This document shows positions 9,350 to 59,201 of a stretch of 64,000 nucleotides of DNA, one piece after another. How positions within the stretch are numbered: position 1 is the stretch's first letter; each line of letters begins with the position of its first letter. Both the position numbers and the translations under genes were made by a program. The stretch lies in sequence record PQ478073.1; one strand, given 5' to 3'. The DNA comes from a phage. The notes beneath the pieces are model-generated. The model saw only the letters and a program-made list of their open reading frames with translations. It was not told the origin of the DNA and ran no database searches.

Positions 9350-9447
9350 GATGATATGAAATATGAACATCCGTGATGGGTTATCATATAAAGAAGCAGG
9401 TAAAGATGGTGTCAAAGGTGAAGCTGTAGATCTTTGCATTTGTGCAC

Positions 9448-9476
9448 TTGACATGTTCGCTTTGTAATGCGATAAT
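9448..9476 (+). promoter_or_regulatory. sigma70-type promoter (TTGACA N17 GATAAT)
   Basis: consensus -35 and near-consensus -10 upstream of 9567 gene. Confidence 0.5.
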
Positions 9477-9566
9477 ATGAGTTCAGAAGAGATGGAACGT
9501 GAGTTCCTTACTTACATGAATGTTAAACTAGCCAAATGGCGTAAATCAATTCAATAGGTATTTTAA

Positions 9567-10538
9567 ATGAAAACTAAAATTATTTCTGAACAAAAAATTG
9601 GCAATACTACAGTACTGAATCTTGAAGTTCAAGGTCTTAGTAATGTTCGTTCTCTTACGGTTTGTACTCAGAGAGATGATTTGACTGATTTCTATAGCTC
9701 AGAATACATGTCAGAAGAACCTTGGGATATGGGATGGTTGGACGGTAGTAGTTATATCAGTTCTCGTTATAGTTTTGGTTCTCATGAAAATATTGAACAA
9801 GTAAAAAATGAGTATATTAAACTCAGTGATACTATTGAAATGGAAGAAGTCGATTGTGTAGAACTTTTCATTTTTGAATTCGATGCCGGAAATGGTAATT
9901 CATTACTAGTAAGTAATATTGAAGAACATTTAATGTATCATGAAATTGAAGATGTAGATTTTGAAAGTATTAAAAATGTTGTTCATATGGTTGGTGGTAG
10001 TATTACGGATGATTCAGATATCGGTCATAATATTTCACTGTGCTTAATTTCTCATCCAAAAACTCGTGGTTTTAAAGTTCCACAAGATGAAACTTACGTG
10101 TTTGAAACTGCTGATGAAGGAATTTATCCTTGGAATGATTATGTAGAATACTATGGTCATTTCTGTTCTGATATAAAAGAACTGAAAAAAGGCGAACAAT
10201 ATTTTGATATGTTTCGTGCTGCACAGCGTTTAGTACTGAATAATACTGAACTATTTCCTGATCGCGGCGAAGAAAATATGATTGATATTATCTTCAAGAA
10301 CTATGATTATGTACAGAACATTCCTGATAATGTACATTTGGAATATGTTCACGGTTCTTCAAACAAATTCTATAATATTGAATTGAATGCTCCAGTGTGT
10401 GAAGTAATTATTGAGTACGGTTCTATTGGTAAAACCAGTACTACAGATGGTGAAGAATTCGAAACTATTGAAGAAGCACGTAAGTTCTTCGAGAAGAAAG
10501 TAATTTCTAAAATTAAAAGTGGTTATAGCCCAAAATGA
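9567..10538 (+). CDS. protein with C-terminal WGR-like domain
   Basis: C-terminus SNKFYNIEL...EYGSIGKT...FETIEEARKFF...KSGYSP resembles WGR domain. Confidence 0.45.
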   Translation: MKTKIISEQKIGNTTVLNLEVQGLSNVRSLTVCTQRDDLTDFYSSEYMSEEPWDMGWLDGSSYISSRYSFGSHENIEQVKNEYIKLSDTIEMEEVDCVELFIFEFDAGNGNSLLVSNIEEHLMYHEIEDVDFESIKNVVHMVGGSITDDSDIGHNISLCLISHPKTRGFKVPQDETYVFETADEGIYPWNDYVEYYGHFCSDIKELKKGEQYFDMFRAAQRLVLNNTELFPDRGEENMIDIIFKNYDYVQNIPDNVHLEYVHGSSNKFYNIELNAPVCEVIIEYGSIGKTSTTDGEEFETIEEARKFFEKKVISKIKSGYSPK

Positions 10539-10915
10539 AAATCACACGCTTTGGTAAAACCTTTGAACTAAACATTGTTTCTGTTTATAAAAAAGGAAAA
10601 TCAGGAAAGTTAAGCACTGATAATATTAGATTTGTTATTAGTGATTATTATGATATGTTTAATCAGGCATTTGAAGAAAATAAATTTGGTTTGATTTTAT
10701 GTAAACCACAAAAACCGGAATTAGGTATTTTGGATTTAAGAACTGATAAGTCTGATTTTATTGGTAATCTTGATATTATTGAATTTAAAGTTGATATATC
10801 AAAAGAACATTTTAGAGTTAAAAACTATAATTATTACAAAGTTGATATTAATTCTATCGAAGTACAAAACGTACTTGATGAACTTATCAGTAATAATTCG
10901 TGTTTTACTAAATGA
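10535..10915 (+). CDS. hypothetical protein
   Basis: ATGA-coupled ORF. Confidence 0.45.
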   Translation: MKITRFGKTFELNIVSVYKKGKSGKLSTDNIRFVISDYYDMFNQAFEENKFGLILCKPQKPELGILDLRTDKSDFIGNLDIIEFKVDISKEHFRVKNYNYYKVDINSIEVQNVLDELISNNSCFTK

Positions 10916-16592: not shown

Positions 16593-16642
16593 GTTATGTA
16601 TATAAATACATTAACTAATATCTAATTTATAAGGGATATATA

Positions 16643-19339
16643 ATGTCAAAGAAAATATATGGTGGCTTGGATGTCACACATAATGTGACAGTTAATGGTA
16701 AAAGAACAATACAAGGTATCAATGATCAAGTATTTGATGCTAATGGCAATATGGAGCTAGATACTTATTCAAGAGATGAAGTACTAGATATCGTCAGTAT
16801 GATGCCAATTTCCCATTATGGGTCACAAAACTATCTTCCTGCTGGTGTATCTGGTGATTTCAATGGTGCATCTGAAAACCAGTCCCAACGTAGAAATAAA
16901 ATTTTATTAGAAAACGATGGTACACTCGTATTATTACGTAGTGGTACAAACGGTAGTGTTGAGGGATTATATTATTCATATTTGGCTAACGCATTATCAG
17001 TTGATGACATGAGCCGTACAATTAACACCAGTCGTCAATACAAGCCTGGTTTTTTCGGTTCAAATCGCGTCGCAATTGGCTTATACAATACTGATCCAAA
17101 TATTTTACTCGGTAGATATGTAGACACTTCTAACAGTACTAATGGATTGTTTATTTCTATTACTAATGGTACATTAGATGATAAATTACATACTGGTTTT
17201 TTTGTAAATCAAGCAGATATTTGCCCTGAAGGGGGTATAGAATTTGCAATGATGGCTGAAGATGGTTCAATCTATGTCTTTAGTGTTCTTAATGAAAATA
17301 ACCAACTACAGTTAGTTGTTGTCCGAGTTGTATATAATATTAGCAATGGAACATATACGGCAACTCGTATTACAGGATGGACTACAAAAACATTCTATAA
17401 TACAACTTATTCTGCACAGAATAACATGGTTATTACTAATCAAGTAACTTCAACTAATATAGCAGATAAGCCTTATGTGTATGTACCACAAAACCTACGT
17501 GGTATTGGGATTTATATGACATCCATTGATTTGTATGTTGCACAGCAACCAGGAACACAGAACTTTCGTTTTAGAATGAATGGTGATGCATGGTTTACAA
17601 TGGCGACATATAATGTCCGACCACAACATAGCTACAGCTTTGCATTTAATATGAGTACTAAACAATGCACCCTAGACGCTGGGAATGACATAGGTTCATA
17701 TCAAGCACCATTGGTTATAACCAATACTGGCTCTGCATTAGTGCCTACAGGTAACGTTTTAAATAATGATCCATTATATAATCATGCTGGTGCAAGAAAC
17801 ATTTATAGTTCATATTTTTATTTGAATTCTGGTGAAGCTTTTTGTACTGCATGTCCAAACTTAGCAGAACCATTACTTATGCAAAAAGCTAAGTTTCCTA
17901 TTCAAATAGTTTATAGTATGCTGAATGTCCGTGCTGTACTTTCTACTGACTTCAAAGGTGGTATAGTTCGCCCGTCTTTTGGTTCAGCGGTTGGTTCATT
18001 TATTAATGGTGTAGAATTACTACCAGATAACAGTACTAAACAATATTCACGTGCATCAGGTAGTGGTGGATTTAGACCATCATATGCAGTTCATAAAAGT
18101 ACTCCTAATTTTACATTTAAATCATTATCTTTAGGAACAATACAAGGTTATGAACCTACAGTTGAACGTGCTAATGTTGATGATAATGCAAATAATAGAA
18201 TTTTTATTAGTAGTATTTCTGGGTCAACTGTCACAACCAATGGTGGTATTTTTATGGTTGGGCAACGTTATTCACAATCATTATCCTATGATAAAAACTT
18301 AAATGGCACAGGAATTATAAGCGTTACACAATCAGTACTGGACAATTTTAGAAATACTGAATATGCCAAAGTTCTAAGTGACTGGAATTTATCAGCACAA
18401 GCATACCGTGATATGACACTATTTGTTCCACAACAAACAGACATTCCAGCTTTTGTTATGTTGAGTACAATTACTAATGATTATAGAAACTATATTAGAA
18501 TTGCTGAAGTTAATGTCAATACTAGAGTTGGTAATATTACATCTATTACATTTAAGCGTTTAGTACTTGAGAATACGTATGGTGATAACTTTACACCAAC
18601 TGGGAATGGTTCGATTGCATCTTCTTCTGTTGGTTTGACCATATATGATGGTGGTTCATTCTACTTCATTGGTGGTTCTGACCCATTATCACATCCAACA
18701 ATAGGTAATACTGCAACTCATCAATTTAGAGCATATGTAACTAAATCAACTGCACAATTTACAAGTTTTATAATTACTGGTTCTCATGCCAGTTATGAAC
18801 AAGGAAGTCAACCAGCAGCGTTACCTGGTATTGGTTTTGGAATTTTTGAACCAATGGATTACTCAAATAAAATGACATTCAAAAAATATGGAACAACGAT
18901 TGCAGACTATAATAACTGGACTGCACAAGGTAGCCCAATTAACGTAGTATCCCAGGACGTTGCTCAAGGGTTTATTGTATATTTTACAGAGGAAACACCA
19001 GTTATTCTTTCAGGTAAGTCATTTTCACTACCAGTTTCAAATATTGATTTGAGAACTATTAAGTCTAATCCAGCAAATACAACATTTTATGTATATGTTA
19101 AATTGGAACAAGGATTGGCAAACTATTACATAACTACTGATGTTATTTCTGAAACAGGAACAACTGCATATAATATTTTTTGGATAGGTACAATTCAAAC
19201 TAACGCAATTCAAATCGAAACAATTAATATACAAAAACGTTCCCGTTTAGATATATTTGGTGCTTCACTTGAATCAGCAGGTTCATCGTTCCCAGTTAGC
19301 TACGGTCTACCATCACAAACAGGAACCATAAACTGGTAA
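16643..19339 (+). CDS. tail fibre protein (paralog family)
   Basis: 898 aa, T/S/N/G-rich; shares N- and C-terminal modules with 19955-22684 and 19351-19938. Confidence 0.6.
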   Translation: MSKKIYGGLDVTHNVTVNGKRTIQGINDQVFDANGNMELDTYSRDEVLDIVSMMPISHYGSQNYLPAGVSGDFNGASENQSQRRNKILLENDGTLVLLRSGTNGSVEGLYYSYLANALSVDDMSRTINTSRQYKPGFFGSNRVAIGLYNTDPNILLGRYVDTSNSTNGLFISITNGTLDDKLHTGFFVNQADICPEGGIEFAMMAEDGSIYVFSVLNENNQLQLVVVRVVYNISNGTYTATRITGWTTKTFYNTTYSAQNNMVITNQVTSTNIADKPYVYVPQNLRGIGIYMTSIDLYVAQQPGTQNFRFRMNGDAWFTMATYNVRPQHSYSFAFNMSTKQCTLDAGNDIGSYQAPLVITNTGSALVPTGNVLNNDPLYNHAGARNIYSSYFYLNSGEAFCTACPNLAEPLLMQKAKFPIQIVYSMLNVRAVLSTDFKGGIVRPSFGSAVGSFINGVELLPDNSTKQYSRASGSGGFRPSYAVHKSTPNFTFKSLSLGTIQGYEPTVERANVDDNANNRIFISSISGSTVTTNGGIFMVGQRYSQSLSYDKNLNGTGIISVTQSVLDNFRNTEYAKVLSDWNLSAQAYRDMTLFVPQQTDIPAFVMLSTITNDYRNYIRIAEVNVNTRVGNITSITFKRLVLENTYGDNFTPTGNGSIASSSVGLTIYDGGSFYFIGGSDPLSHPTIGNTATHQFRAYVTKSTAQFTSFIITGSHASYEQGSQPAALPGIGFGIFEPMDYSNKMTFKKYGTTIADYNNWTAQGSPINVVSQDVAQGFIVYFTEETPVILSGKSFSLPVSNIDLRTIKSNPANTTFYVYVKLEQGLANYYITTDVISETGTTAYNIFWIGTIQTNAIQIETINIQKRSRLDIFGASLESAGSSFPVSYGLPSQTGTINW

Positions 19340-19350
19340 AGGATTACATA

Positions 19351-19938
19351 ATGGCATATAAAATAAGAGCAGACCTTAAGGCAATGCAACAAGTTACAGT
19401 ACAGGGTAAAAGTACTGGACTTGGTGTATTAGGTAATAATATGACTTATTACCCAACAAATTCAAATGGGGAATGTACATTCCCCTCTATTACCAAAGAT
19501 GAAGTTAACTTTATTGTCAATGGATTACCACTTACACAATACGGAGAATTGTATGATGACGCTAGTCTAAATATTACTTCATCAGGCTATAGTCTTACAT
19601 TTAATAGACAGATACCATCATTTATTGGTGGTTATCTTTATAAATTTCCAGCAGTTTCTATTTTTGCTTCAACTGTTTCATCTGGAACACAAACACAATA
19701 TGTATATGCAACGTTAGTTCTCGGTGAACCAATTTATAAAATATCACCAACACAAATACAAGAATCTGAAATTATAATGTTTATTGGTACTCTTACTGTA
19801 GGTACAAGTGGTATTACAAATATAAACATTAATAAAGTATCCAGATTTAGTACATATAGACCTAGTGTTACACAAAAAGGTTCTTCATTCCCAGTCAGTA
19901 CTGGAAAACCATCAGAAACTGGTACAATTGGTTGGTAA
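19351..19938 (+). CDS. short tail-fibre-related protein (mini paralog)
   Basis: 195 aa carrying the fibre N-terminal and C-terminal conserved segments (C-term GSSFPVSTG.PS.TGTIGW). Confidence 0.5.
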   Translation: MAYKIRADLKAMQQVTVQGKSTGLGVLGNNMTYYPTNSNGECTFPSITKDEVNFIVNGLPLTQYGELYDDASLNITSSGYSLTFNRQIPSFIGGYLYKFPAVSIFASTVSSGTQTQYVYATLVLGEPIYKISPTQIQESEIIMFIGTLTVGTSGITNININKVSRFSTYRPSVTQKGSSFPVSTGKPSETGTIGW

Positions 19939-19954
19939 ATTAAGGAAAAGAAAG

Positions 19955-22684
19955 ATGTCATCAAAACGAATTATAGGAAGTGCCGAGATCCTTGGGAACT
20001 TGGCAATTGGACAAAGGTACGCTATGCGTACTTTTAATGGAACCTCACCGAATGCCAATACTGGAATTGTTCAATATCCAATATATAAGCGTTCAGAAGT
20101 TCAAAGTATTTTAGATATGTTGCCTATATCACGTGTAGGAGAAATGGATTACTTACCATTAAACGTAAGTGGGTCGTATGAAGGTGCTACACCTATGTCA
20201 AGTGACCAAGTAGTTCAGCCAACAATTATTGAAGATGATGGAACCGCCGTTGTTCTGCGTAGCGGAACCAATGGTAGTACTAAAGGTTTTTATTATTCAT
20301 TTATACGAGAACTCCGAAATATAACTATGATTTCACAAGAAAGTGTTATTTCAACCAATTCAATGTATAAACCTTCAATTATGAGTAGTACTGAAAATAT
20401 TAAGTATTTTATTGGCTCTAATGGTTATGAGATGCTTGGATGTTTAAGTACTGAAGATAATTATATTTTTACTATAACCAATGGCACATTTAACGAAATA
20501 TCACATATTCATGCTAAAGTGCCAAGTACTTCTTTTGGTAATGATATGCCAATATATACACATATTGTTGGGACAAAGGTTTATATTTGGTGTAAAGATA
20601 AAAGTGTTTCTAATTTAGGATTAGCACTTTCAATTTATACAGTAGAGCTAAGTGATGTGAAAGCAAGCTCAATGGCATCATTAACAAAAGTTACTGGGTT
20701 ATCAGGTCAAACTGTTCGAAACACAAGTTATTCTGCATCTAATAACATAAGAGTGTTCGATAAATTATATAGTGTTGGTACTAGCTCGGATTCATTATTC
20801 GAAGTTACATCACCAGTATCACGTGTAGAATTTTCAGACTATACAGACTTTAACATTCAAGCCAACGTTAGTCCTGATTTATCAAAAATACGTGTAACTT
20901 TATATCCAACACATCGAATGGTTACACCTTTGTATATTTCAACAGTTTATGGTACTGGAATAAGTTTTGTTTATAATATAAACTCAAAATCTATGTCACT
21001 AGATGGTAGTGCTCGTGCACCTGCAACTGTTTCATATAATAATGGATTTCAAGTTTCTAACCCATTTGAAATTAATATGGTCAACTTCACAGGGACAACT
21101 GCTGCTGGTGTATTAGGAAACGCAGGTGGTTTATGTCAAACTAAAGATGGTTTGGTATTTGCATCTAAATTTAGATGGAGTTCAACTGAATTTTATGGTC
21201 TACAACGATATAAGGTTAGTGGTACACCGTTTGATTCATGGGTTGCCAGTACTAGAACCGCAAGTAACGTTATAAATGCAAACGTTTTACCAGTTTTTGG
21301 TAGTGCTGTTGGTGCAAACCTTTTAGGTGTACGTTTCATCGATAATAGAAAAATATTATTAGCATGTTCTGGTACGTATGATGATGTAACATATAATTAT
21401 AATAATACTGTTTTTTCTGAAATAGGTTCACAACCAACATATCAATATAACTCAGTTCAAAATAATACTACATTAAATGGTTTTGCACCACAATCTAATC
21501 GTAAACAAATAGGCGATGATTTTACATACACTGCTATGATTTCTCTTGTTGATACCGATGGTAGTGTTAGATGCTATGGAACATCATTCATTGAAGGTGT
21601 ATATAAAACAAGTGGTGGATTATTAAATCCAGATACTTTAGAATTTGATGAAACATATACAATAGAACCAACGGTATTAGAATCATTAAAACAAGATATT
21701 TTTGCTAATATAGGAAACTCTGGCATTGTTGGTACACTATCTGGACAAATTGTATTATATTATGTACCTGATAATACTTTTTCTAAATCCATCGCAGTAG
21801 TTTCAGCATATAATCTTAACAATAACCAAGGTTATGCAATCTATGCCGAAGTTGATGTTGTATTATCTGGAACTAACATAACTTCAGCTACATTGGTGAG
21901 TACTAGATATGAGACACTTAGTTCTGTTACAGGAATTATTACTGAAGCATATATGAAACGTTGTACTGGTCTAACAGTTGCAAAATATTCAGGATTTGGT
22001 TACATTGGTGTTGATGCTGTTCATCAATTTTCACAACCAGGTAATGCACAATTTAAGATGATGATAGCTAAAACAGTAGATGGTGTCATAACATCAAATC
22101 GTTTTTTATCATCTAGTTACATCCAACTTGGTGCAGCATATCAACATGGTGTTATTCCTGGTGTTGGTTTTGGATATTACAATTTTCAAGATTCTGACTA
22201 TCAAACCAAATCTGTATTCAGCGTTTTTGGTACAACATCTGCTGAAATGGATGGTTTAATTAGCGGAAATGGTAGCGTTAAAGAAAAGATTGTGGTAGTA
22301 TCACAAGACGTTGCACAAGGATTCTCAGTGTACTTTACACGTGAAGTTCCGGTGTTTTTAGGTGGAATTTTCGACAGACTACCTATACAAAGTGTTGATT
22401 TAAGTACTGTAAAAAGTAACCCAGCTAATACTACGTTCTATTTGTATATACAAATGAACAGGAATACTAAGAAAGCGTCATATGTTATTAGTACTGAAAC
22501 AATTGATGAATCTTTAACTAGCACTTACATTGGTAAGATAGTTACTGGAACTTCAGGAATAACTTCAATTGATACAGAAAAAGTAACTCGTTTTTTGACA
22601 TATCGTCCAAGTACAACGAAACGTGGTTCAGCGATACCTGCCAGTACTGGTGTACCATCAGGTCCAGGTACACGTTGGAAATAA
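19955..22684 (+). CDS. tail fibre protein (paralog family)
   Basis: start re-placed at ATG 19955 (AAGGAAAAG RBS); shared VVSQDVAQGF...KSNPANTTFY block with 16643 gene. Confidence 0.6.
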   Translation: MSSKRIIGSAEILGNLAIGQRYAMRTFNGTSPNANTGIVQYPIYKRSEVQSILDMLPISRVGEMDYLPLNVSGSYEGATPMSSDQVVQPTIIEDDGTAVVLRSGTNGSTKGFYYSFIRELRNITMISQESVISTNSMYKPSIMSSTENIKYFIGSNGYEMLGCLSTEDNYIFTITNGTFNEISHIHAKVPSTSFGNDMPIYTHIVGTKVYIWCKDKSVSNLGLALSIYTVELSDVKASSMASLTKVTGLSGQTVRNTSYSASNNIRVFDKLYSVGTSSDSLFEVTSPVSRVEFSDYTDFNIQANVSPDLSKIRVTLYPTHRMVTPLYISTVYGTGISFVYNINSKSMSLDGSARAPATVSYNNGFQVSNPFEINMVNFTGTTAAGVLGNAGGLCQTKDGLVFASKFRWSSTEFYGLQRYKVSGTPFDSWVASTRTASNVINANVLPVFGSAVGANLLGVRFIDNRKILLACSGTYDDVTYNYNNTVFSEIGSQPTYQYNSVQNNTTLNGFAPQSNRKQIGDDFTYTAMISLVDTDGSVRCYGTSFIEGVYKTSGGLLNPDTLEFDETYTIEPTVLESLKQDIFANIGNSGIVGTLSGQIVLYYVPDNTFSKSIAVVSAYNLNNNQGYAIYAEVDVVLSGTNITSATLVSTRYETLSSVTGIITEAYMKRCTGLTVAKYSGFGYIGVDAVHQFSQPGNAQFKMMIAKTVDGVITSNRFLSSSYIQLGAAYQHGVIPGVGFGYYNFQDSDYQTKSVFSVFGTTSAEMDGLISGNGSVKEKIVVVSQDVAQGFSVYFTREVPVFLGGIFDRLPIQSVDLSTVKSNPANTTFYLYIQMNRNTKKASYVISTETIDESLTSTYIGKIVTGTSGITSIDTEKVTRFLTYRPSTTKRGSAIPASTGVPSGPGTRWK

Positions 22685-22690
22685 ATTTAA

Positions 22691-22718
22691 AGCTCGTCTA
22701 TTGACGGGCTTTTCTTTT
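22691..22718 (+). terminator. intrinsic terminator (overlaps -35 of next promoter)
   Basis: 8-bp stem, T-rich tail. Confidence 0.45.
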
Positions 22719-22729
22719 ATGTGTATAAT
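22701..22729 (+). promoter_or_regulatory. sigma70-type promoter (TTGACG N17 TATAAT)
   Basis: hexamers upstream of 22752 gene. Confidence 0.5.
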
Positions 22730-22751
22730 TGAATAAAAATAGGAGGAAATT

Positions 22752-23318
22752 ATGGTCAAAACTTTATTACCACCACCAAAACGTCACAAAATCAAAGAAA
22801 TGAAAGAACAACGTACATTAAAGATGTACAACAATTTAGTTAAGTTACTGTGTAAAAGTCCATCGCTCAAAGCAGAGTTTAAAACTGATGATGACCGTAA
22901 AGCACTAATTGAGATGAAATATATGCTCAGTAAAATGTCCTTTTACAAATTTGTAAAAGAATACGCATCTGACCCATTTAGTCCTCGTTGGAGAGCCAAA
23001 CCAAGAGAGTATTTTTACGGTGGTTCATATACAGATCGCATTCAAGACACAGTGATGGGAGTTGAATTTGAAATCGATTATGAGCCGAATGGTGAGGAAA
23101 TCTTGCAGATTGAGAAACGTTTACCAAGTGAAGAAGAAATTTATGTTTATGCAAGAAAACTTTCAACTTACAGTTCAAGAATTACTCTAGGCAATTTAGA
23201 TTCATTAATTATTTTCTATACACGTGTTGGTGTAGATAAGATGGTAACTAAACTCAATGAACTTTCATTACAACAAAAACAGATTAATGCATACAAAGAC
23301 ATTACTGATTTATACTAA
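22752..23318 (+). CDS. hypothetical protein, member 1 of tandem paralog triplet
   Basis: AGGAGG RBS; shared motif TDDDRKALIEMKYMLSK. Confidence 0.5.
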   Translation: MVKTLLPPPKRHKIKEMKEQRTLKMYNNLVKLLCKSPSLKAEFKTDDDRKALIEMKYMLSKMSFYKFVKEYASDPFSPRWRAKPREYFYGGSYTDRIQDTVMGVEFEIDYEPNGEEILQIEKRLPSEEEIYVYARKLSTYSSRITLGNLDSLIIFYTRVGVDKMVTKLNELSLQQKQINAYKDITDLY

Positions 23319-23324
23319 TGAGGA

Positions 23325-23846
23325 ATGGATATGTTTTTTGGATCAGTTGGAAAACAAAACAGTACTTTAATTTGGCATGAAATTATCTTTAAAATTATAT
23401 CTAAAAGCTACTCACTAAAGGATATTATCACCACAGATAATGATAGACGTATCCTGTTAGATGCAAAATATAAATTGAGCAAACACCCTTTACTTTCTTT
23501 AATCATTGATTACGTTAATGATTATGAATCTAGTCGTTGGAAGTGGGAAGACGGCGGTTTATTTCGTGGAAAAACATTCTACGGTGCGGAACGATATGTT
23601 TTCAGTGATGCATCAAATGGCGTTAAGTTTGTTATTAGAAACTTTAACTCCAAAGAAAATGATTATCTTGAAAGTGGAGTGAAAGTATATATCGATAATA
23701 ATAGCAATGTCCTAACATATGACGAATCACTAATTATGTTACAAATAATGCGTGGTGTTGAAGGTGTAAGAAACAACCTTACTAAATTGAAAATCCAGCA
23801 AAATGATATACATAATAGACAGAAAATTAAGGGTTTATATAAATGA
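23325..23846 (+). CDS. hypothetical protein, member 2 of tandem paralog triplet
   Basis: motif TDNDRRILLDAKYKLSK. Confidence 0.5.
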   Translation: MDMFFGSVGKQNSTLIWHEIIFKIISKSYSLKDIITTDNDRRILLDAKYKLSKHPLLSLIIDYVNDYESSRWKWEDGGLFRGKTFYGAERYVFSDASNGVKFVIRNFNSKENDYLESGVKVYIDNNSNVLTYDESLIMLQIMRGVEGVRNNLTKLKIQQNDIHNRQKIKGLYK

Positions 23847-24352
23847 TTTCATTTTTCAAAAAGAAACAAAAAGTTGATGAAACAGGATTAGAATCGTTTC
23901 TATGGACTCTTATCATCAAAAAAAGTCCATTGATAAAAGAATATGCTATCAATGATGCTAATAGAAAAACTATCATTGAATACAAATACGAATTATCAAA
24001 ATGTGATCCAATCGTTTATCACTTTGCGAAGTACTGTTCAAAAAATTTATCGGATATCACAATAGACCATGAGTCAGTTCCAATGAGCTTTCCTTATGGT
24101 GATTGGGTAGATACTTTTGATATTTTTGATGGGTCCAATGGATTCAGTTTCTTTTACTCGTCAAATAAAGCAAATGTTCGTATTAAAACAGAGATAGGTT
24201 GGGCACAGCATAGCTCAAATAAAGAAGATTATAATTTACTAGCTGACGTATACCGAAGTGTGAAGAATTCAAAGGATATTGATGAAAGAATTAAAAAGCA
24301 AAATCGTATTTCTTTATCACTTGAAACATACAAGTCAAAGTATGGTGGTTAA
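23843..24352 (+). CDS. hypothetical protein, member 3 of tandem paralog triplet
   Basis: motif NDANRKTIIEYKYELSK; ATGA coupling. Confidence 0.5.
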   Translation: MISFFKKKQKVDETGLESFLWTLIIKKSPLIKEYAINDANRKTIIEYKYELSKCDPIVYHFAKYCSKNLSDITIDHESVPMSFPYGDWVDTFDIFDGSNGFSFFYSSNKANVRIKTEIGWAQHSSNKEDYNLLADVYRSVKNSKDIDERIKKQNRISLSLETYKSKYGG

Positions 24353-24354
24353 CG

Positions 24355-24756
24355 ATGACTACAGTTGATGATATCTACAGCACTATACGCAATATGAGTA
24401 CAGATAGAAAAGTATTTGGTGATAAAGAAAAATCTAAGTGTTATGGTATTGATTCTTTTGATATAATTTCTTATGAGTACAACACGAGTGGAAATAGTTC
24501 ACTGAATATCGTCTGCCCTCGTGACCCAGAAAATAATTTTATGTATGTTGAAATTAATAATGATGGAATATTTTTTACAAAAGTTTTTAAAGGTGGAATT
24601 AATTACGAACCAATTGAATGTATGAATGAAGAAACTTTCTTTCAAGAAGATACAATTATCAATTTAGGTTTTAGTTTTGATGATTATAAAACATTAGAAC
24701 ATGACTTTAATCGTTATTATAACGGTTTCTTAAAGGAGTTAACAATTTATCTATGA
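24355..24756 (+). CDS. hypothetical protein
   Basis: ATG 24355, coupled to next gene. Confidence 0.45.
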   Translation: MTTVDDIYSTIRNMSTDRKVFGDKEKSKCYGIDSFDIISYEYNTSGNSSLNIVCPRDPENNFMYVEINNDGIFFTKVFKGGINYEPIECMNEETFFQEDTIINLGFSFDDYKTLEHDFNRYYNGFLKELTIYL

Positions 24757-25985
24757 ATAACCAATATGTTGAACAAACAATAGTGAAACACTTGGCTGGG
24801 TCACAAGCCTACGGAACCAGTACACCTGAAAGTGATACTGATTATCGTGGTATTTTTCTTGCTAATAAAGAATTTATTCTTACGCCATTCTATAAGGTCA
24901 AAGAAGTAGCTGATAAAAATGAAGAAGATACTAAATTCTATGAGTTAAATCAGTATTTAAAATTATACACTGAAGCCAACCCTAATATATTGGAATCACT
25001 ATGGGTCGATCCAGAACACATTGTAGAAAGTACTGAGATTTATGACTATCTTCGTTCATTTAACCAAAAACTTCTTAGTTCCAAGATTGCATTTTCATAC
25101 ACTGGATATGCATATAATCAGATTAAGCGTATGACAAATCATCACGGTTGGATGGATAAAGAGCGTATTGCTGAAAAACGATTAAATGAGATTTTAGAAG
25201 AACACCCTGTCGATGAGGTTCTTGCGTGGATGTATGATTCATTCCCACAGTATCTTGTTGAACGTTTAGATACATCCAACTTACATCCATTTAATGCTAA
25301 AAAGATTGATTTTGAAAAATATATGCGTGATACGTCATTGCAGTTAGTTTCGAAAAATCCATTAAAGCAATATCATTTTGTAAGATTAGTGCATAACTAC
25401 ACTACTGAAAAAATTCTTGATCGTGATTTCAATTTATTGAATTTTAATAATGGTTATGAACTAATTCATTACGGAGAAAACATTTTTGCGATTATTAAAA
25501 ATCCGAATGAAAGCACTATCAACGGTGATGGATCATTGCGTTATTTTTCTAAAGAGCGTAGTACTGAAGAGTTGAAAACCAAACCAGAACTAATTGTCAA
25601 ATTTAACGAAAAAGAATATCAGGAAAATAGTGAGAATAGGAAAAGTTATCATAAATGGAAAGAAAATCGTAATGCCAAACGTGCTATTTTAGAATCACAA
25701 CACGGATACGATTGTAAACATGCTATGCACACAATCCGACTTTTGAATAGTGCAGAAGAAGCATTACAAAGTGGAATTATTCAAGTTAAACGACCAGATG
25801 CACAAATGTTGATGGATATTCGTAATGGTAAATGGAAGTATGAAGAAGTATTAGAATATTTCGATGATAAAGTACAATACATTCGTGATGTTCTATATAA
25901 GAAATCAGTACTTCCTAAAAAACCAAACATCAAGTTAGCATCAAAAATTATCATTGATATTAGAGAAATGCAATGGTATAAGTAA
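24753..25985 (+). CDS. Pol-beta superfamily nucleotidyltransferase
   Basis: N-terminal GSQAYGTSTPESDTDYRG (GS...DxD nucleotidyltransferase signature). Confidence 0.5.
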   Translation: MNNQYVEQTIVKHLAGSQAYGTSTPESDTDYRGIFLANKEFILTPFYKVKEVADKNEEDTKFYELNQYLKLYTEANPNILESLWVDPEHIVESTEIYDYLRSFNQKLLSSKIAFSYTGYAYNQIKRMTNHHGWMDKERIAEKRLNEILEEHPVDEVLAWMYDSFPQYLVERLDTSNLHPFNAKKIDFEKYMRDTSLQLVSKNPLKQYHFVRLVHNYTTEKILDRDFNLLNFNNGYELIHYGENIFAIIKNPNESTINGDGSLRYFSKERSTEELKTKPELIVKFNEKEYQENSENRKSYHKWKENRNAKRAILESQHGYDCKHAMHTIRLLNSAEEALQSGIIQVKRPDAQMLMDIRNGKWKYEEVLEYFDDKVQYIRDVLYKKSVLPKKPNIKLASKIIIDIREMQWYK

Positions 25986-26153
25986 CATATACAAGTGTAA
26001 TGGTACTAAAAATGCCATTACACTCAATAAATACTCAATATAAATTAACACAAGGATTAAGTATGGCACAACAAATTTTCACAGATATCCACACTACCGG
26101 AGTTATTAAATTTCAAAATAATTTTTCAGGTGCAACTGGTGTAGACATTAAAA

Positions 26154-26690
26154 ATGATGGTTTTAACATTGTCAGTACTCGGATCTATTGATGGTGAAGA
26201 TAGTTCTCTTAGTGATTCTGTGATTGCATCATTCGGAACTAATAAAAACAGTTCTTTTATTATATCTGGATGGACTGGAATGACTGATTCTGAAAATAAT
26301 GTTAAGATAAAAGCTAAAGCTACTAACGAGAATCATGAAACAGAATGGGTAACATTATATGATAGTGCAAGTAATAAGTTATATAATGTATTAAGTTCTA
26401 ATAATATTTTAATTAATCCACTGTCGGGCAATGCTGTTTTTAATATTAATTTATCTGATAGAAATACTACTATTTCGATTGGTGCGGCTCCTACTGAAGT
26501 TTATTCAATTACCATCCTATTAACACAACAAACAGGTTCAAACCTAGTTAATTGGGGTTCTAATGTTAAATGGTCATATAACAGACCAGTTGTTCTTTCT
26601 TATGAAATTGGTGAAAAAGATATTATTTCATTAGAAACATATGATAAAGGAGTTACATGGTACGGTGCATTAATTAGAGCAGGAGTATGA
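26154..26690 (+). CDS. hypothetical protein (possibly fused by frameshift to small upstream ORF 26063-26191)
   Basis: ATG 26154; upstream 43-aa ORF in another frame overlaps the start. Confidence 0.4.
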   Translation: MMVLTLSVLGSIDGEDSSLSDSVIASFGTNKNSSFIISGWTGMTDSENNVKIKAKATNENHETEWVTLYDSASNKLYNVLSSNNILINPLSGNAVFNINLSDRNTTISIGAAPTEVYSITILLTQQTGSNLVNWGSNVKWSYNRPVVLSYEIGEKDIISLETYDKGVTWYGALIRAGV

Positions 26691-26691
26691 T

Positions 26692-29481
26692 ATGTTAAAC
26701 AATAATATTGATAATATTGTACAACTTCTTTATGGGCATCACAAATTTATTGAAAGAAATACTGGTGATACAATAGACCCAACAGTACAACATTATGTGG
26801 TGAATAATCAGGGTGTTTTGGCGAACAACCGTCATTTTATTAACTATTCTGCAATGGAAGGTCAACCAAACGGTGACGGGACAACAGAAGGTCAAAGTCT
26901 ATTAATTTTAGGATACATTTATGCGTATCTGGCAACAAATGATCCAATGTTTTTAGATAAAGCCAAATGGTACTGGGATGCATATCATCAGTACTTTTAT
27001 GCTGGACGTGAATTACCAGATCCACCTACACCACTACAATGTAACTGGATAGTTAATGCCAAAGAACCTATATTGGCTAACTGGCCTTTAGCTGATGATG
27101 GATGGCCTACACATGGTGGTTTCAAGGGTGTAGAATTTACATTTACAAATGGACAATGTAAAATACCACATGGTGCACCTTATTATGGTCAGTTCTTGGA
27201 TAAAGTAACATTTGCATTCAAAGGTGCTTTAGCATGGAACCAAATAAATGCGTCAGTAAAAGCATTATTACCAGATGGTAGTGTTGATTGGGATACACCA
27301 GGTGAACAATATGATGTTGACTGGATTATCGATTTCATGGGTAGAAAAATCGACTGGGATGGTAATATTTTAGCAGAAGGTTTTGACGAATCTGAAAAAG
27401 GAACTGTTCAATTAAAGAATACAACAATTAATGGTGTATATAAATTAAATTTTGCAAATCGTCAACCAGTAGAATATGGTGGTGTGATAATTCAACGAAA
27501 TGAAATGCAACACAACCGCCCACTTCATGTTCCAATTGATTTGGAATTTGCGGATAACGCATCAGATGCAGAATTGTGGTTTAGTGATGCTTCTTATTTG
27601 TTATATAAAATAACAAAAGAAAGAAAACATTATTTGGGTTGGAAATGTTCACTACTAACGTGTTATGCTTATGGTGATATTGACTCCAGAGATAAATTTT
27701 TCAGACAAAGTACAATTGTAACCACACCATTCACTGATGGTATTTCCTATGAATATTTTTATCCAAGTGATGCTATTGCTAAGTTTGGTAGAAATTCTCT
27801 AGGATATATTACTATCAGGCAAGACCAAAGTGCACAAAGTACAATGGAACAACAAGCTATTTGGTTCAGGGTCAATGCTGATTCTAAATTACTTGTAGAC
27901 TATGGTGGTGTATGTGATGATGGTAAGCCGTTATCATTTAAACCAGTACTTGAATTGTCAAAAACAAAAAATGACCATGATGTTGTTCGTTATCGTTGTG
28001 GCTTACCGGAAAGTAAAGACCAAAATATCACACATTCATTAACACCTTTAAGTGCATTTGTTAGAGAAAAGAAAGCAGATGGTTCCCCTTATATAATTGC
28101 TGATAGTAGAATTGTTGTTCCTTATGGTGCAGCTACGTCCGAAATGATATATAGTACTGATATATTAGTTACACGCCGCGATACCATTAATCAGTTAGTT
28201 TGTGGTGAAGATGATGGTGCTGTTATTGGATTTTGGCTATTAGCAACAAATAAGTCTGAAGTTAAATCTTTTACCTATCGTTCATATGAAGATGATTACA
28301 ATATAAGAATTGTAGATGATAATGGTTGGAGATGGTGGTGGATGATTCCTGCAACACACGGGGAATGGACTACAATCACACTAAGTCCCGATACATTACG
28401 TTTATCTGGGTATCAGCCAAATCATCCAAGTTCTGACCCAAGACCAGATGCACCAGTTTATAGTGAACTAGAAGATATTACTATTTTACCTGATACAACC
28501 CCAGTAGATGGTGTTGCTGCAATAATTGATTGGTATTGTATTAATGACATTCCAGAATTATACACGGATGCTGACGGTGATGACTATACTATGACATTTT
28601 CAATAACAATTGCAGGTGAATCACCATATACTGCACAGTTAGGGGATTGTGTAATCAAAGATTATTTGTTAAACTCATTGCATTACACACCAGGAACAAT
28701 ACCATTTTCTAACATCACTGACCCGTATGCGAACCAGTATTCAGGATGGCGTGGTTTACCGTATCCAGGTTATCAATATCCTGTGATATATTGTTTTAAA
28801 GACCAGCCAGTAGATAACACACGCTTAGGAAACATGTTAAGCTTTATGAAAGATTCCCAAACATGGTTTACTCAACAATTCGGTACTGTTGGTCCGTGTG
28901 CACAAGCATATGTTTGGAACCGCTGGGATAACTTAAAATATGGTGAACCAGATACATTTACTATGCTACATTGGGGTGATCAAGCATGGAGTGGGTATGA
29001 ACCACGTGCGTTCTTTGGGGCTGCCAGAGCATGGCAAGAACTCGCAGAGAGAGGAATTGAACCACCAGCAGATCTTGTTGAATTTTGTGAGAATTGGATT
29101 CACTTTTTAATTCAATTTCAAAAAGATAATGATGGTCGTTCACCAACAATCTTCAATAAAGATGGCACAGTTGAAGGTCCAGATTGGGACTTTACAGGTC
29201 ATATGTGTGGGTTGTGGTTAGCTGGGGCTTGTGCTGCTGGATTGGCTGGATGTAAAATAGAAGGTCTAACAACACTCGCTGATAACTTAGTTCTCGAACT
29301 TCAAAAGAATTATGTTATTGTAAATCCAGGTTCACCAATGAATGGTTCATGGAGTCCAGCAGTTAGAGAAGGTACTGATAATGGTATGTTTTTTGGTTTC
29401 TGGGCAGGTGAGATTATGCGTGGATTGGGATTATACTCAATGTACCGCTTAAACACACCAAATCGTTTCCGTGATTTATAA
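26692..29481 (+). CDS. large tail-associated protein, possibly carbohydrate-active
   Basis: 929 aa, aromatic-rich, in the fibre module; enzyme assignment is a guess. Confidence 0.45.
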   Translation: MLNNNIDNIVQLLYGHHKFIERNTGDTIDPTVQHYVVNNQGVLANNRHFINYSAMEGQPNGDGTTEGQSLLILGYIYAYLATNDPMFLDKAKWYWDAYHQYFYAGRELPDPPTPLQCNWIVNAKEPILANWPLADDGWPTHGGFKGVEFTFTNGQCKIPHGAPYYGQFLDKVTFAFKGALAWNQINASVKALLPDGSVDWDTPGEQYDVDWIIDFMGRKIDWDGNILAEGFDESEKGTVQLKNTTINGVYKLNFANRQPVEYGGVIIQRNEMQHNRPLHVPIDLEFADNASDAELWFSDASYLLYKITKERKHYLGWKCSLLTCYAYGDIDSRDKFFRQSTIVTTPFTDGISYEYFYPSDAIAKFGRNSLGYITIRQDQSAQSTMEQQAIWFRVNADSKLLVDYGGVCDDGKPLSFKPVLELSKTKNDHDVVRYRCGLPESKDQNITHSLTPLSAFVREKKADGSPYIIADSRIVVPYGAATSEMIYSTDILVTRRDTINQLVCGEDDGAVIGFWLLATNKSEVKSFTYRSYEDDYNIRIVDDNGWRWWWMIPATHGEWTTITLSPDTLRLSGYQPNHPSSDPRPDAPVYSELEDITILPDTTPVDGVAAIIDWYCINDIPELYTDADGDDYTMTFSITIAGESPYTAQLGDCVIKDYLLNSLHYTPGTIPFSNITDPYANQYSGWRGLPYPGYQYPVIYCFKDQPVDNTRLGNMLSFMKDSQTWFTQQFGTVGPCAQAYVWNRWDNLKYGEPDTFTMLHWGDQAWSGYEPRAFFGAARAWQELAERGIEPPADLVEFCENWIHFLIQFQKDNDGRSPTIFNKDGTVEGPDWDFTGHMCGLWLAGACAAGLAGCKIEGLTTLADNLVLELQKNYVIVNPGSPMNGSWSPAVREGTDNGMFFGFWAGEIMRGLGLYSMYRLNTPNRFRDL

Positions 29482-29482
29482 C

Positions 29483-29511
29483 TTGACATAGAAAAAGTAA
29501 TTATGTATAAT
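29483..29511 (+). promoter_or_regulatory. sigma70-type promoter (TTGACA N17 TATAAT)
   Basis: consensus hexamers; predicted start site falls inside stem of terminator 29514-29542. Confidence 0.55.
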
Positions 29512-29513
29512 CA

Positions 29514-29542
29514 GAGAACTTCATATGGAGTTCTCTTTTTTT
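29514..29542 (+). terminator. intrinsic terminator
   Basis: 9-bp stem, ATAT loop, T7. Confidence 0.6.
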
Positions 29543-29555
29543 ATAAGGTGATAAA

Positions 29556-29975
29556 ATGTTAAATGAACGTATTAAAAATGCACTACATGTATTGAACCAA
29601 GAAGTAAATTCTATTGATAAAAGTACTGACCGTTATAAAGTAATGCATGAAATCAAACAAGAATTGGAATCTATTAATAAGGGAGAATGGTGGTATCTTC
29701 AGCCCGAATATCAAACTCGTGAATTAAACGATGTTGAAAAAGAAATTGTCAAATTCATCACTACTCGTTACTGTGATACATCAGAGAATGAGGTATCAGC
29801 GAACTTCAATCTTACTAAATTGGAAGTCGAAGAAAAATTCAATTTTGATTGGCTTGATTGGATTGAAATGGTCATGGAACTAGAAGAAAAATTCAATGTT
29901 GAAGTTGATGAAAAGTTCGAGAATAATGAAACGAAGCTGTATGAACTAGTAGAACATATTCAAAAAATGTTGTAA
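29556..29975 (+). CDS. acidic hypothetical protein
   Basis: AAGGTG RBS. Confidence 0.5.
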   Translation: MLNERIKNALHVLNQEVNSIDKSTDRYKVMHEIKQELESINKGEWWYLQPEYQTRELNDVEKEIVKFITTRYCDTSENEVSANFNLTKLEVEEKFNFDWLDWIEMVMELEEKFNVEVDEKFENNETKLYELVEHIQKML

Positions 29976-58277: not shown

Positions 58278-58673
58278 ATGCAATATAATTATCGTGAACT
58301 AGTTGAAGCGTTAGACGAAATTACCGGAAGAGATGAAGACGAAAGTTTTTCAGTTGAAGTTGAATCCGATGTTGTAGCAGTTGATGTTCTTAAGGATATT
58401 ACCAAATGTCTTATTAACATTGTTGATAAGATTAAATCTGGTGAAGACCAAAAAGAAATTGTAGATAAACTACAAAAAGCCTGTGACATTTTGTCTGATA
58501 TTCGATATAATGATGAAAGTACTGAAGTTGCTGATGATGAAGTGTTGGAAGCCATTGCAGGTTGTTTTGGTACTGAAGGTATGGGACCAACAATTGACAA
58601 AGAAGGTGTACAACACTATAATGAACCTGGTGCACCATCTTATGCTGCACGTCAAGGTTTTGTTGGAGACTAA
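58278..58673 (+). CDS. acidic hypothetical protein
   Basis: ATG-initiated. Confidence 0.45.
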   Translation: MQYNYRELVEALDEITGRDEDESFSVEVESDVVAVDVLKDITKCLINIVDKIKSGEDQKEIVDKLQKACDILSDIRYNDESTEVADDEVLEAIAGCFGTEGMGPTIDKEGVQHYNEPGAPSYAARQGFVGD

Positions 58674-58676
58674 TAT

Positions 58677-59057
58677 ATGTTTCCAGAACCATCACATAAC
58701 AGTACTGAATATCAAAATAATGTACTTTCCAAAGTTAGGGAAGTACATGAATCAGATTCAGAAATAACAGACCGTATGCTTCTGATGTCAATTTTTGAAA
58801 ATTTCAGAACTGGCGGTGGTTTACGTCTTAGTAAGTTTGGATATGGAATTTGTAAAGAAAATAATCTTTATGAATTTACAAAAATCCCCTTGCAAAGAGA
58901 ATTTAAAAGTTCTATAATGTTTACATCACTTGACAGAATATGTACTTCACCTTACTATGTTGAAGGTCAGTACATATATCTGACAGATGCAATGATAATA
59001 ACTGAATTAACATTGTGTTGTGATGATTTTAAACAGTTATTTTCTATTCATATGTAA
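58677..59057 (+). CDS. hypothetical protein
   Basis: ATG-initiated. Confidence 0.45.
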   Translation: MFPEPSHNSTEYQNNVLSKVREVHESDSEITDRMLLMSIFENFRTGGGLRLSKFGYGICKENNLYEFTKIPLQREFKSSIMFTSLDRICTSPYYVEGQYIYLTDAMIITELTLCCDDFKQLFSIHM

Positions 59058-59080
59058 GAAAAATGAGTTAAAAATAAATG

Positions 59081-59108
59081 TTGACAAGATAGAATGATGT
59101 GATATAAT
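59081..59108 (+). promoter_or_regulatory. sigma70 promoter P1 (TTGACA N16 TGaTATAAT), -10 flanked by inverted repeat
   Basis: consensus hexamers; tandem with P2. Confidence 0.6.
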
Positions 59109-59173
59109 AAGCATCAGACATAAAGTTTTCAAGCGTCACAAGATGTGAGTTTGAAAAAAAGAAAAAAAAGTGA

Positions 59174-59201
59174 TTGACAAGTTGAAACGATGTGATATAA
59201 T
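59174..59201 (+). promoter_or_regulatory. sigma70 promoter P2 (TTGACA N16 TGaTATAAT), -10 inside 7-bp inverted repeat GATGTGA/TCACATC
   Basis: consensus hexamers. Confidence 0.6.

Follow-up and report, generated by a model that had tools for sequence, protein, structure and literature searches.

Two RlaP nucleotidyltransferases of Pseudomonas, PfRlaP and PaRlaP, add 1-2 nucleoside monophosphates to the 3'-OH ends of RNA, as described in a 2025 preprint (PMC12776372). These enzymes depend on Mn2+ and on three conserved aspartates, prefer mimics of damaged tRNA, and act on RNA only and not on DNA or protein; a tRNA from which a nucleotide is missing can regain aminoacylation once the RlaP product is ligated (PMC12776372). 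A role for RlaP has been proposed against RloC-type nucleases, which excise a nucleotide. The T4 protein NrdC.11 is counted as a member of the family (PMC12776372), and a survey of jumbo phages showed that the distribution of RlaP mirrors that of RNA ligase (PMC7824862). Here we analyzed a stretch of 64,000 nucleotides (nt) of phage DNA (record PQ478073.1, hereafter the window), in which three small paralogous genes (A, B, and C) and a further open reading frame (ORF), D, precede a gene coding for an RlaP-family nucleotidyltransferase (NTase). All features of the window given below with coordinates lie on the + strand. Our results suggest, with a rough probability of 0.55, that the locus is a self-contained early operon, in which the RlaP-family NTase is combined with paralogues active in counter-defence or host interaction, and that it is placed between two late operons for fibre-like virion proteins.

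The block consists of five genes that are tightly packed or overlapping. Paralogue A (22752-23318) codes for 188 amino acids (aa), paralogue B (23325-23846) for 173 aa, and paralogue C (23843-24352) for 169 aa; they are followed by ORF D (24355-24756, 133 aa) and the NTase gene (24753-25985, 410 aa). The start codon of C overlaps the stop codon of B, and that of the NTase gene the stop codon of D, both as ATGA. Over the 5 kb around the locus, the sequence is that of Escherichia phage UB (100% identity), and about 20 jumbo phages of E. coli and Salmonella belonging to the 121Q/PBECO4 group (Asteriusvirus, ~350 kb) show 97-100% identity. The five genes correspond to gp502 (A), gp503 (B), gp504 (C), gp505 (D), and gp506 (NTase) of phage 121Q, with 98% identity, and have their counterparts in phAPEC6 gp321c-316c (A, gp321c; B, gp320c; C, gp319c; D, gp318c). 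In public records gp506 is named 'nucleotidyltransferase', and gp502-505 are named 'hypothetical protein'. A preliminary description of this DNA gave the coordinates and lengths of the paralogues and the 410-aa protein exactly. However, it placed the NTase gene immediately downstream of the trio, whereas ORF D, which has no detectable similarity to the paralogues, intervenes.

The NTase matched the Pfam family RlaP (PF10127) over residues 12-131 with an E-value of 3.1e-16 and 60.3 bits, the gathering score being 23. This was its sole Pfam match. It also matched phrog_388, annotated as 'nucleotidyltransferase' (1e-76). In an alignment of 15 divergent sequences including NrdC.11 of phage RB14, residues G16, S17, D28, D30, and D59 were invariant, and a C-terminal block was conserved (E314, D320, K322, H326, R329, E336, and D349). 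The RlaP fold is described as an N-terminal NTase domain with a helical C-terminal domain that forms a cleft for RNA binding. The signature GS.AYG.....SDTDYRG, from which a Pol-beta-type NTase had been proposed, was found literally and only once, in this protein, and the RlaP profile match together with the invariant residues supports the proposal; the motif lies within a match to a family of the Pol-beta superfamily, and the refutation foreseen there, a motif outside a Pol-beta fold, did not arise. Homologues were found in 1084 phage records, among them the T4-type NrdC.11, and those examined carry PF10127, apart from one truncated copy (see below). No PDB chain was detectable for the NTase by sequence or profile, and the search against NCBIfam returned nothing. 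Judged by its sequence, the NTase is a member of the RlaP family, which has already been described, and its gene has already been annotated. By analogy with the bacterial enzymes, its likely job is the end-healing of damaged RNA.

Pol-beta NTases are functionally very diverse, the RlaPs characterised biochemically are all bacterial, and the jumbo-phage proteins carry a clade-specific insertion of 65 aa and have no adjacent RNA ligase. These observations would fit an NTase that nucleotidylates a protein, a small molecule, or phage DNA ends, or that makes or destroys an immune signalling nucleotide, with the paralogues as its substrates or regulators. We regard this as very unlikely, because RlaP is the only Pfam family matched, and no match at E<=0.1 was obtained to the PADLOC defence-system profiles, which include CD-NTases and other defence NTases. 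In addition, the characterised members of the family are confined to RNA substrates and do not use DNA or protein (PMC12776372), and the genome also codes for Rnl1, polynucleotide kinase (Pnkp), and a CCA-adding enzyme, to which sister genera add Thg1 in the same block.

Like PfRlaP, PaRlaP, and T4 NrdC.11, gp506 shows a significant PF10127 match, the G-S...D-x-D...D signature, and the conserved C-terminal block. It also shares its genome with an RNA ligase and a polynucleotide kinase: in 121Q, the Rnl1-type ligase gp438 and the kinase gp443 are located ~37 kb upstream of gp506. The reported co-occurrence of RlaP and RNA ligase is therefore found in 121Q at the genome level and not by adjacency. 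In this respect gp506 differs from the family in lying outside any RNA-ligase operon (~37 kb apart), while T4 NrdC.11 is likewise not adjacent to rnlA. The CCA-adding enzyme (121Q gp539) is encoded within the region of the window and is not adjacent to gp506. The identity between gp506 and T4-type NrdC.11 is only ~22%, and gp506, with 410 aa, carries the insertion of ~65 aa (residues ~134-200). The RlaPs of RaK2-like jumbo phages have this insertion in common, whereas T4-type NrdC.11 and the shorter RlaPs (~350 aa) encoded by smaller phages lack it. In T4, Pnkp and Rnl1 repair tRNA and so counter the anticodon nuclease PrrC. This phage group likewise has enzymes of the Rnl1-like, Pnkp, CCA-adding, and RlaP types, with Thg1 as an addition to the block in sister genera, and the predicted early expression would suit counter-defence. 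Unlike in T4, the repair genes of the jumbo phages are dispersed and not clustered, and T4 has no counterpart of the paralogue family. The tRNA scan and the Rfam scan of the window were both empty.

The common origin of A, B, and C was supported by several comparisons. A and B align over their full length (BLASTP, E=5e-15, 30% identity), and C is related to A (E=1e-4) and to B (4e-4) over the N-terminal ~40 aa only. When all 555 six-frame ORFs of the window were compared by phmmer, the best non-self matches of each paralogue were the other two only. The PHROG profiles also match across the trio, in that A (4e-79) and B (3e-85) belong to phrog_18641 and C (7e-58) belongs to phrog_7868, each with a weaker match to the other family, and a hidden Markov model (HMM) built from 24 family members recovers all three. 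The tandem paralogy proposed in the preliminary description is thus borne out, and the alignment statistics, named there in advance as a possible refutation, support it. Its pattern for the core motif, [TN]D.[DN]R+.[LI]IE.KY.LSK, did not hold when taken literally, since it matches zero ORFs; the true core is D-x2-R-x6-KY-x-LSK, which is matched by exactly A, B, and C and by no other ORF of the window. No further copies were found outside the block in the window and in ~90 kb of neighbouring 121Q and CBB sequence. ORF D was considered as a diverged fourth paralogue and ruled out, as it gave zero signal by phmmer or by the family HMM. Its product is acidic (pI, isoelectric point, 4.4), belongs to phrog_22376, and is otherwise without a family or structure match, as searches of PDB, NCBIfam, and PADLOC gave nothing; it is conserved at 59-60% across Asteriusvirus and RaK2-like phages and is not present in CBB or Eneladusvirus.

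The paralogue family is small. An indexed search returned 12 clusters only, to which a wider family profile added little, and an exhaustive HMMER search found 29 family members at 50% identity among 1.84 billion representatives. Every member with a readable context came from collinear RaK2-like jumbo phages. The Asteriusvirus lineages have three copies, a RaK2-like Klebsiella phage and the metagenomic relatives L012 and L013 have two, and Eneladusvirus and Mimasvirus have four. The position was constant in the genomes examined, with the paralogues located after the F proteins, a set of virion proteins described below, and before RlaP. The family is not present in Seunavirus, a smaller phage with a close RlaP, and the ORFs around NrdC.11 in RB14 (mobD.1, RB32ORF097c, RB32ORF096c, nrdC.7, nrdC.8, and others) are unrelated to the paralogues or D. 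In CBB and Eneladusvirus, the paralogue copies are interleaved with genes coding for Thg1 (Pfam, 1e-30), a DUF4326 protein, and an N4/N6 DNA methylase. DUF4326 is a predicted enzyme of NAD/ADP-ribose conflict systems. The paralogues therefore form an uncharacterised family that is restricted to one jumbo-phage lineage. The membership in phrog_18641 and phrog_7868, with reciprocal weaker matches, shows that the family had already been clustered in a public phage protein resource, where it is split in two with the function left blank, and where its common origin, its motif, its fixed position upstream of RlaP, and its variation in copy number (2-4) are not recorded. The CBB genome paper lists CBB_147-149 and CBB_160-161 as paralogues and does not list the family members CBB_150, CBB_153, CBB_155, and CBB_156. 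Thus, the paralogy was implicit in PHROGs, divided over two families, and was overlooked in the CBB genome paper.

The proteins of the block have diverged at different rates. Relative to the orthologues in phage A4, the identity is 87% for the NTase, 60% for D, 41-51% for the F proteins, and 33-41% for the positional pairs of paralogues, the lowest values in the block; the paralogues are fast-evolving, as the preliminary description had proposed. A, B, and C of phage UB each remain the best match of their positional counterpart in phage A4. This retention of orthology across lineages indicates that the triplication is old and stable and is not a recent expansion, while the sequences of the proteins point to rapid divergence.

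The paralogues are basic, with a pI of 9.1 for A, 9.2 for B, and 8.7 for C and a family median of 8.8. An AlphaFold2 model of paralogue B, built from a 24-sequence alignment, had a pLDDT (predicted local distance difference test) of 87 and a pTM (predicted template modelling score) of 0.78. In this model there are four N-terminal helices, a sheet of 4-5 strands, and a C-terminal helix of 40 residues. The near-invariant residues D38, R41, K48, Y49, and S52 (B numbering) are placed on helix 3, D95 on a strand, and Y172 at the C-terminus. The family is thus built from a polar helix that is conserved and carries D-x2-R-x6-KY-x-LSK, a beta-sheet that varies, and a long helix at the C-terminus. No fold relative was detectable for the model of B, and sequence and profile searches of Pfam, NCBIfam, PADLOC, and PDB with the paralogues returned nothing. 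The basic character, the modelled three- to four-helix N-terminal bundle that bears the conserved polar motif ahead of the 40-residue helix, and the promoter of early type upstream of the genes (see below) would also suit small dimeric nucleic-acid-binding regulators. Such proteins, with a bundle resembling a helix-turn-helix (HTH) and a dimerising C-terminal helix, would act early in infection to reprogram transcription or translation of the host or the phage, a function separate from RNA repair. We consider this unlikely: no HTH family was matched in Pfam or NCBIfam, and it is in the putative recognition helix that these otherwise fast-evolving proteins are most conserved, which is unusual for paralogous regulators with different targets.

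The signals around the block separate it from its neighbours. An intrinsic terminator (22689-22712) with a 10-bp stem and a T-tract (delta-G -14.4 kcal/mol) lies 5 nt after the stop codon of the upstream gene F3 (22684). It overlaps a sigma-70-type promoter (22701-22729; TTGACG-17-TATAAT, 11/12), whose -35 element coincides with the 3' arm of the terminator, and a Shine-Dalgarno sequence, AGGAGG (22741-22746), is found 5 nt before the ATG of paralogue A. In this module, the -35 element TTGAC(A/G) is located in the loop and the 3' arm of a strong hairpin, and the T-tract doubles as the promoter spacer. The module is also found at this junction in 121Q, phage A4, the divergent metagenomic relative L002, CBB, and Eneladusvirus; its conservation extends over four genera (L007 ~5889, L002 ~2850, L018 ~9840-9960, and L008 ~2328-2430), and CBB and Eneladusvirus have two modules in tandem. 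A promoter of at least 10/12 precedes the first paralogue in 121Q, L002, phage A4, the RaK2-like Klebsiella phage, and Eneladusvirus, and a promoter is also found there in CBB; it is kept in each genus sampled, even where the intergenic sequence is unrelated. At the other end, a hairpin (25995-26023) without a U-tract directly follows the NTase stop codon and is the probable 3' boundary of the operon. Across three Asteriusvirus lineages, compensatory changes in both arms preserve 8 of the 12 base pairs, and CAATAAATA after the hairpin is invariant. Termination, RNase processing, and stabilisation of the early transcript are all conceivable roles for the hairpin.

Near-consensus sigma-70 promoters occur 13 times on the coding strand of the window and once on the other strand, and 12 of the 13 are outside long ORFs by a crude test. 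The hairpin-embedded -35 element was also considered as a general design of the window promoters and was rejected, as it occurs in only one of the 13, at the F3/A junction. Four near-perfect promoters lie on the coding strand within ~720 nt (58483-59201), three of them 12/12 (58594, 59081, and 59174). A perfect 12/12 promoter (29483-29511) lies right after the stop codon of a 929-aa tail protein and is followed by an ORF of 139 aa that is acyl-carrier-protein-like, with a weak match to PP-binding_2, and is so annotated in phAPEC6 and CBB; judged by its motifs, this segment (29483-29975) appears to be another switch from late to early signals.

The motif ATAAATA occurs 8 times on the + strand of the window, while ~32 occurrences would be expected, a depletion of about four-fold. 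Six of the eight are intergenic (7589, 16602, 26027, 47840, 50914, and 54625) and are mostly located 35-60 nt upstream of structural genes, including F1, a tail-fibre unit, sheath, and tube. None precedes the block from A to the NTase. This pattern is consistent with a T4-like late promoter that is used before structural genes and avoided elsewhere. The only + strand copy in the window of the T4 late-promoter consensus, TATAAATA (16601-16608), lies 42 nt upstream of F1 (16643), which marks the unit F1-F2-F3 (16643-22684) as late. The next late unit appears to start after the NTase hairpin, where ATAAATA (26027-26033) and, close after it, a second late-type motif, TATAAATT (26039-26046), precede a 42-aa ORF and tail-fibre genes. 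In CBB, RpoD-like promoters were reported before early clusters of short ORFs, and the ATAAATA motif before late structural genes, together with a gp55-like sigma factor and three promoter classes (PMC5259590). Since the sigma-70 promoter, the terminator, and the placement of ATAAATA match these classes, the block looks like an early operon, and we infer from these motifs that it lies between two late ones. Neither this architecture nor the constant pairing with RlaP has been described in the literature examined.

The genes on both sides of the block code for virion or tail proteins. F1 (16643-19339, 898 aa), F2 (19351-19938, 195 aa), and F3 (20024-22684, 886 aa) form a tandem paralogue set (E=2e-60 and 7e-24), in which F1 and F3 share 27% identity over ~900 aa (E=2e-60) and F2 is a mini-version that keeps the N- and C-termini. 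For F3, the annotation starts at the ATG at 20024; the 939-aa form with a GTG start in the ORF list overlaps F2. All three proteins end in ...GS[SA][FI]P[VA]S.G.PS..GT..W. They have no fibre annotation and fall into PHROGs of unknown function; their orthologues phAPEC6 gp323c, CBB_148, and CBB_149 were detected in virions by mass spectrometry (MS). Downstream, a pair of genes (26154-29481) matches tail-fibre or tail families. The preliminary description placed the block after fibre genes, which is only partly apt: the upstream proteins are virion proteins according to the proteomics of relatives and are not annotated as fibres, while tail-fibre or tail genes lie downstream. The 42-aa ORF ahead of the tail-fibre genes (26063-26191; 121Q gp507, phAPEC6 gp315c) codes for a product that was detected by MS in phAPEC6 virions (4.66 kDa, 2 peptides, 69% coverage). 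In relatives outside Asteriusvirus, runs of ORFs of 140-190 aa are found downstream of RlaP in place of the tail-fibre genes (L018 15879-16802, with CBB_160 and CBB_161; L006 11600-13065; L012 11882-14864). CBB_160 and CBB_161 are mutual paralogues (E~1e-14) and do not belong to the family of A, B, and C.

The location next to the F genes raises the explanation that A, B, and C are assembly chaperones or attachment factors for F1-F3 and that the NTase gene lies beside them without being related to their function. In every genome examined, the paralogue genes come directly after those of the F proteins, three F paralogues stand alongside three small paralogues in the phage UB locus, and the small proteins change at least as quickly as the F proteins, a pattern expected of receptor-binding modules and their chaperones. 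The paralogues are missing from the virion proteomes of phAPEC6 and CBB, while the flanking proteins were detected in both; according to these two proteomes, they are not virion proteins, and this absence would be expected of chaperones. In the same way, T4 gp38 and gp57A and the Tfa/Caudo_TAP proteins are small non-virion proteins encoded beside large, fast-evolving, fibre-like virion proteins. However, the paralogues have no sequence or fold similarity to these proteins, and searches of Pfam, NCBIfam, annotated PHROGs, and PDB found no match to known tail-fibre assembly families (Caudo_TAP/Tfa, gp38, gp57A, and intramolecular chaperone domains). In addition, a strong terminator and a conserved sigma-70 promoter of early type separate F3 from A, and no ATAAATA precedes the block, though the motif is found before F1 and other structural genes. 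The copy number of the paralogues does not parallel that of the F genes, with three F genes and two paralogues in L012 and L013 and three F genes and four paralogues in CBB, and the copies of CBB and Eneladusvirus are interleaved with Thg1, DUF4326, and methylase genes, that is, with RNA- and DNA-modifying enzymes. We therefore consider chaperones quite unlikely, and drawing a function from the location after fibre genes fails at the terminator-promoter junction. Among the three functions offered in the preliminary description (chaperone, anti-defence, and nucleotidylation-based), the junction, the missing late motifs, and the interleaving with Thg1, DUF4326, and methylase make the chaperone the least likely and anti-defence the most likely.

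The paralogues are most likely counter-defence or RNA-repair accessories and not fibre chaperones. A role in counter-defence or host interaction is suggested by the early-type signals, the non-virion status, the divergence around a fixed polar helix, and the company of Thg1, DUF4326, methylase, and RlaP. In the mechanism that we propose, host RNA polymerase would start at the sigma-70 promoter that is merged with the terminator of the late unit F1-F2-F3, A-B-C-D-NTase would be transcribed in a single read-through, and transcription or processing would stop at the conserved hairpin after the NTase gene. The NTase may then act on the ends of damaged tRNA, and the Rnl1-type ligase and the polynucleotide kinase encoded ~37 kb upstream could reseal a functional tRNA. 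A, B, and C would belong to the same conflict module as accessories that work inside the cell in counter-defence or host interaction, possibly as specificity or adaptor factors, or as inhibitors, that engage diverse host targets, which would explain both their rapid divergence and the retention of several copies.

Several observations weigh against an early operon that joins RlaP and counter-defence paralogues. The genomes that bear the paralogues are all collinear relatives, and the most divergent family members, checked for a broken linkage, all came from such relatives too, so the linkage to RlaP is not separable from shared ancestry. In L013, RlaP (9365-10606, P0087) is truncated at the N-terminus (287 aa), has no PF10127 call, and is preceded by a gap of 378 nt; the gene is a pseudogene, or else the assembly is at fault. 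The two paralogues and D of this relative are intact, which suggests that the paralogues may not depend on RlaP. The paralogues also match the fibre-like proteins next to them in speed of evolution, as might be expected if their role were linked to the fibres. Moreover, the indications of early timing are promoter motifs, the RlaPs with a characterised activity come from bacteria and are remote relatives of the phage NTase, which carries the clade insertion of ~65 aa, and the window of 64 kb contains no RNA ligase, the nearest being ~37 kb away.

A bolder form of the early-operon proposal is that the paralogues are a structurally novel class of RNA-repair or counter-nuclease accessories, and that the early block is a tRNA-damage countermeasure island of RaK2-like jumbo phages. 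In that case, each fast-evolving copy, using one shared binding helix, might adapt the end-healing enzymes (RlaP, joined by Thg1 in sister genera) to a different damaged tRNA, or each might directly neutralise a different host anticodon nuclease. We regard this as speculative and rather doubtful.

RlaP has only just been characterised biochemically, and this was done with bacterial enzymes. The present locus puts a phage RlaP in an apparent early operon that would be driven by host RNA polymerase, with conserved companions: a multi-copy family without a known fold, joined in sister genera by Thg1, DUF4326, and a DNA methylase. The analysis is a useful clarification with a testable hypothesis and not a surprise. 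If the companions do not act with RlaP, it corrects the assignment of these genes to a fibre module and still maps the early and late promoters in this segment of the genome. If they do cooperate with RlaP, this repair step would gain its first accessory factors, and these would give pointers to the host nucleases that jumbo coliphages must overcome. Therapy with jumbo phages of this group is being considered for E. coli O157 and for avian pathogenic strains, and host-range determinants of this kind therefore matter.

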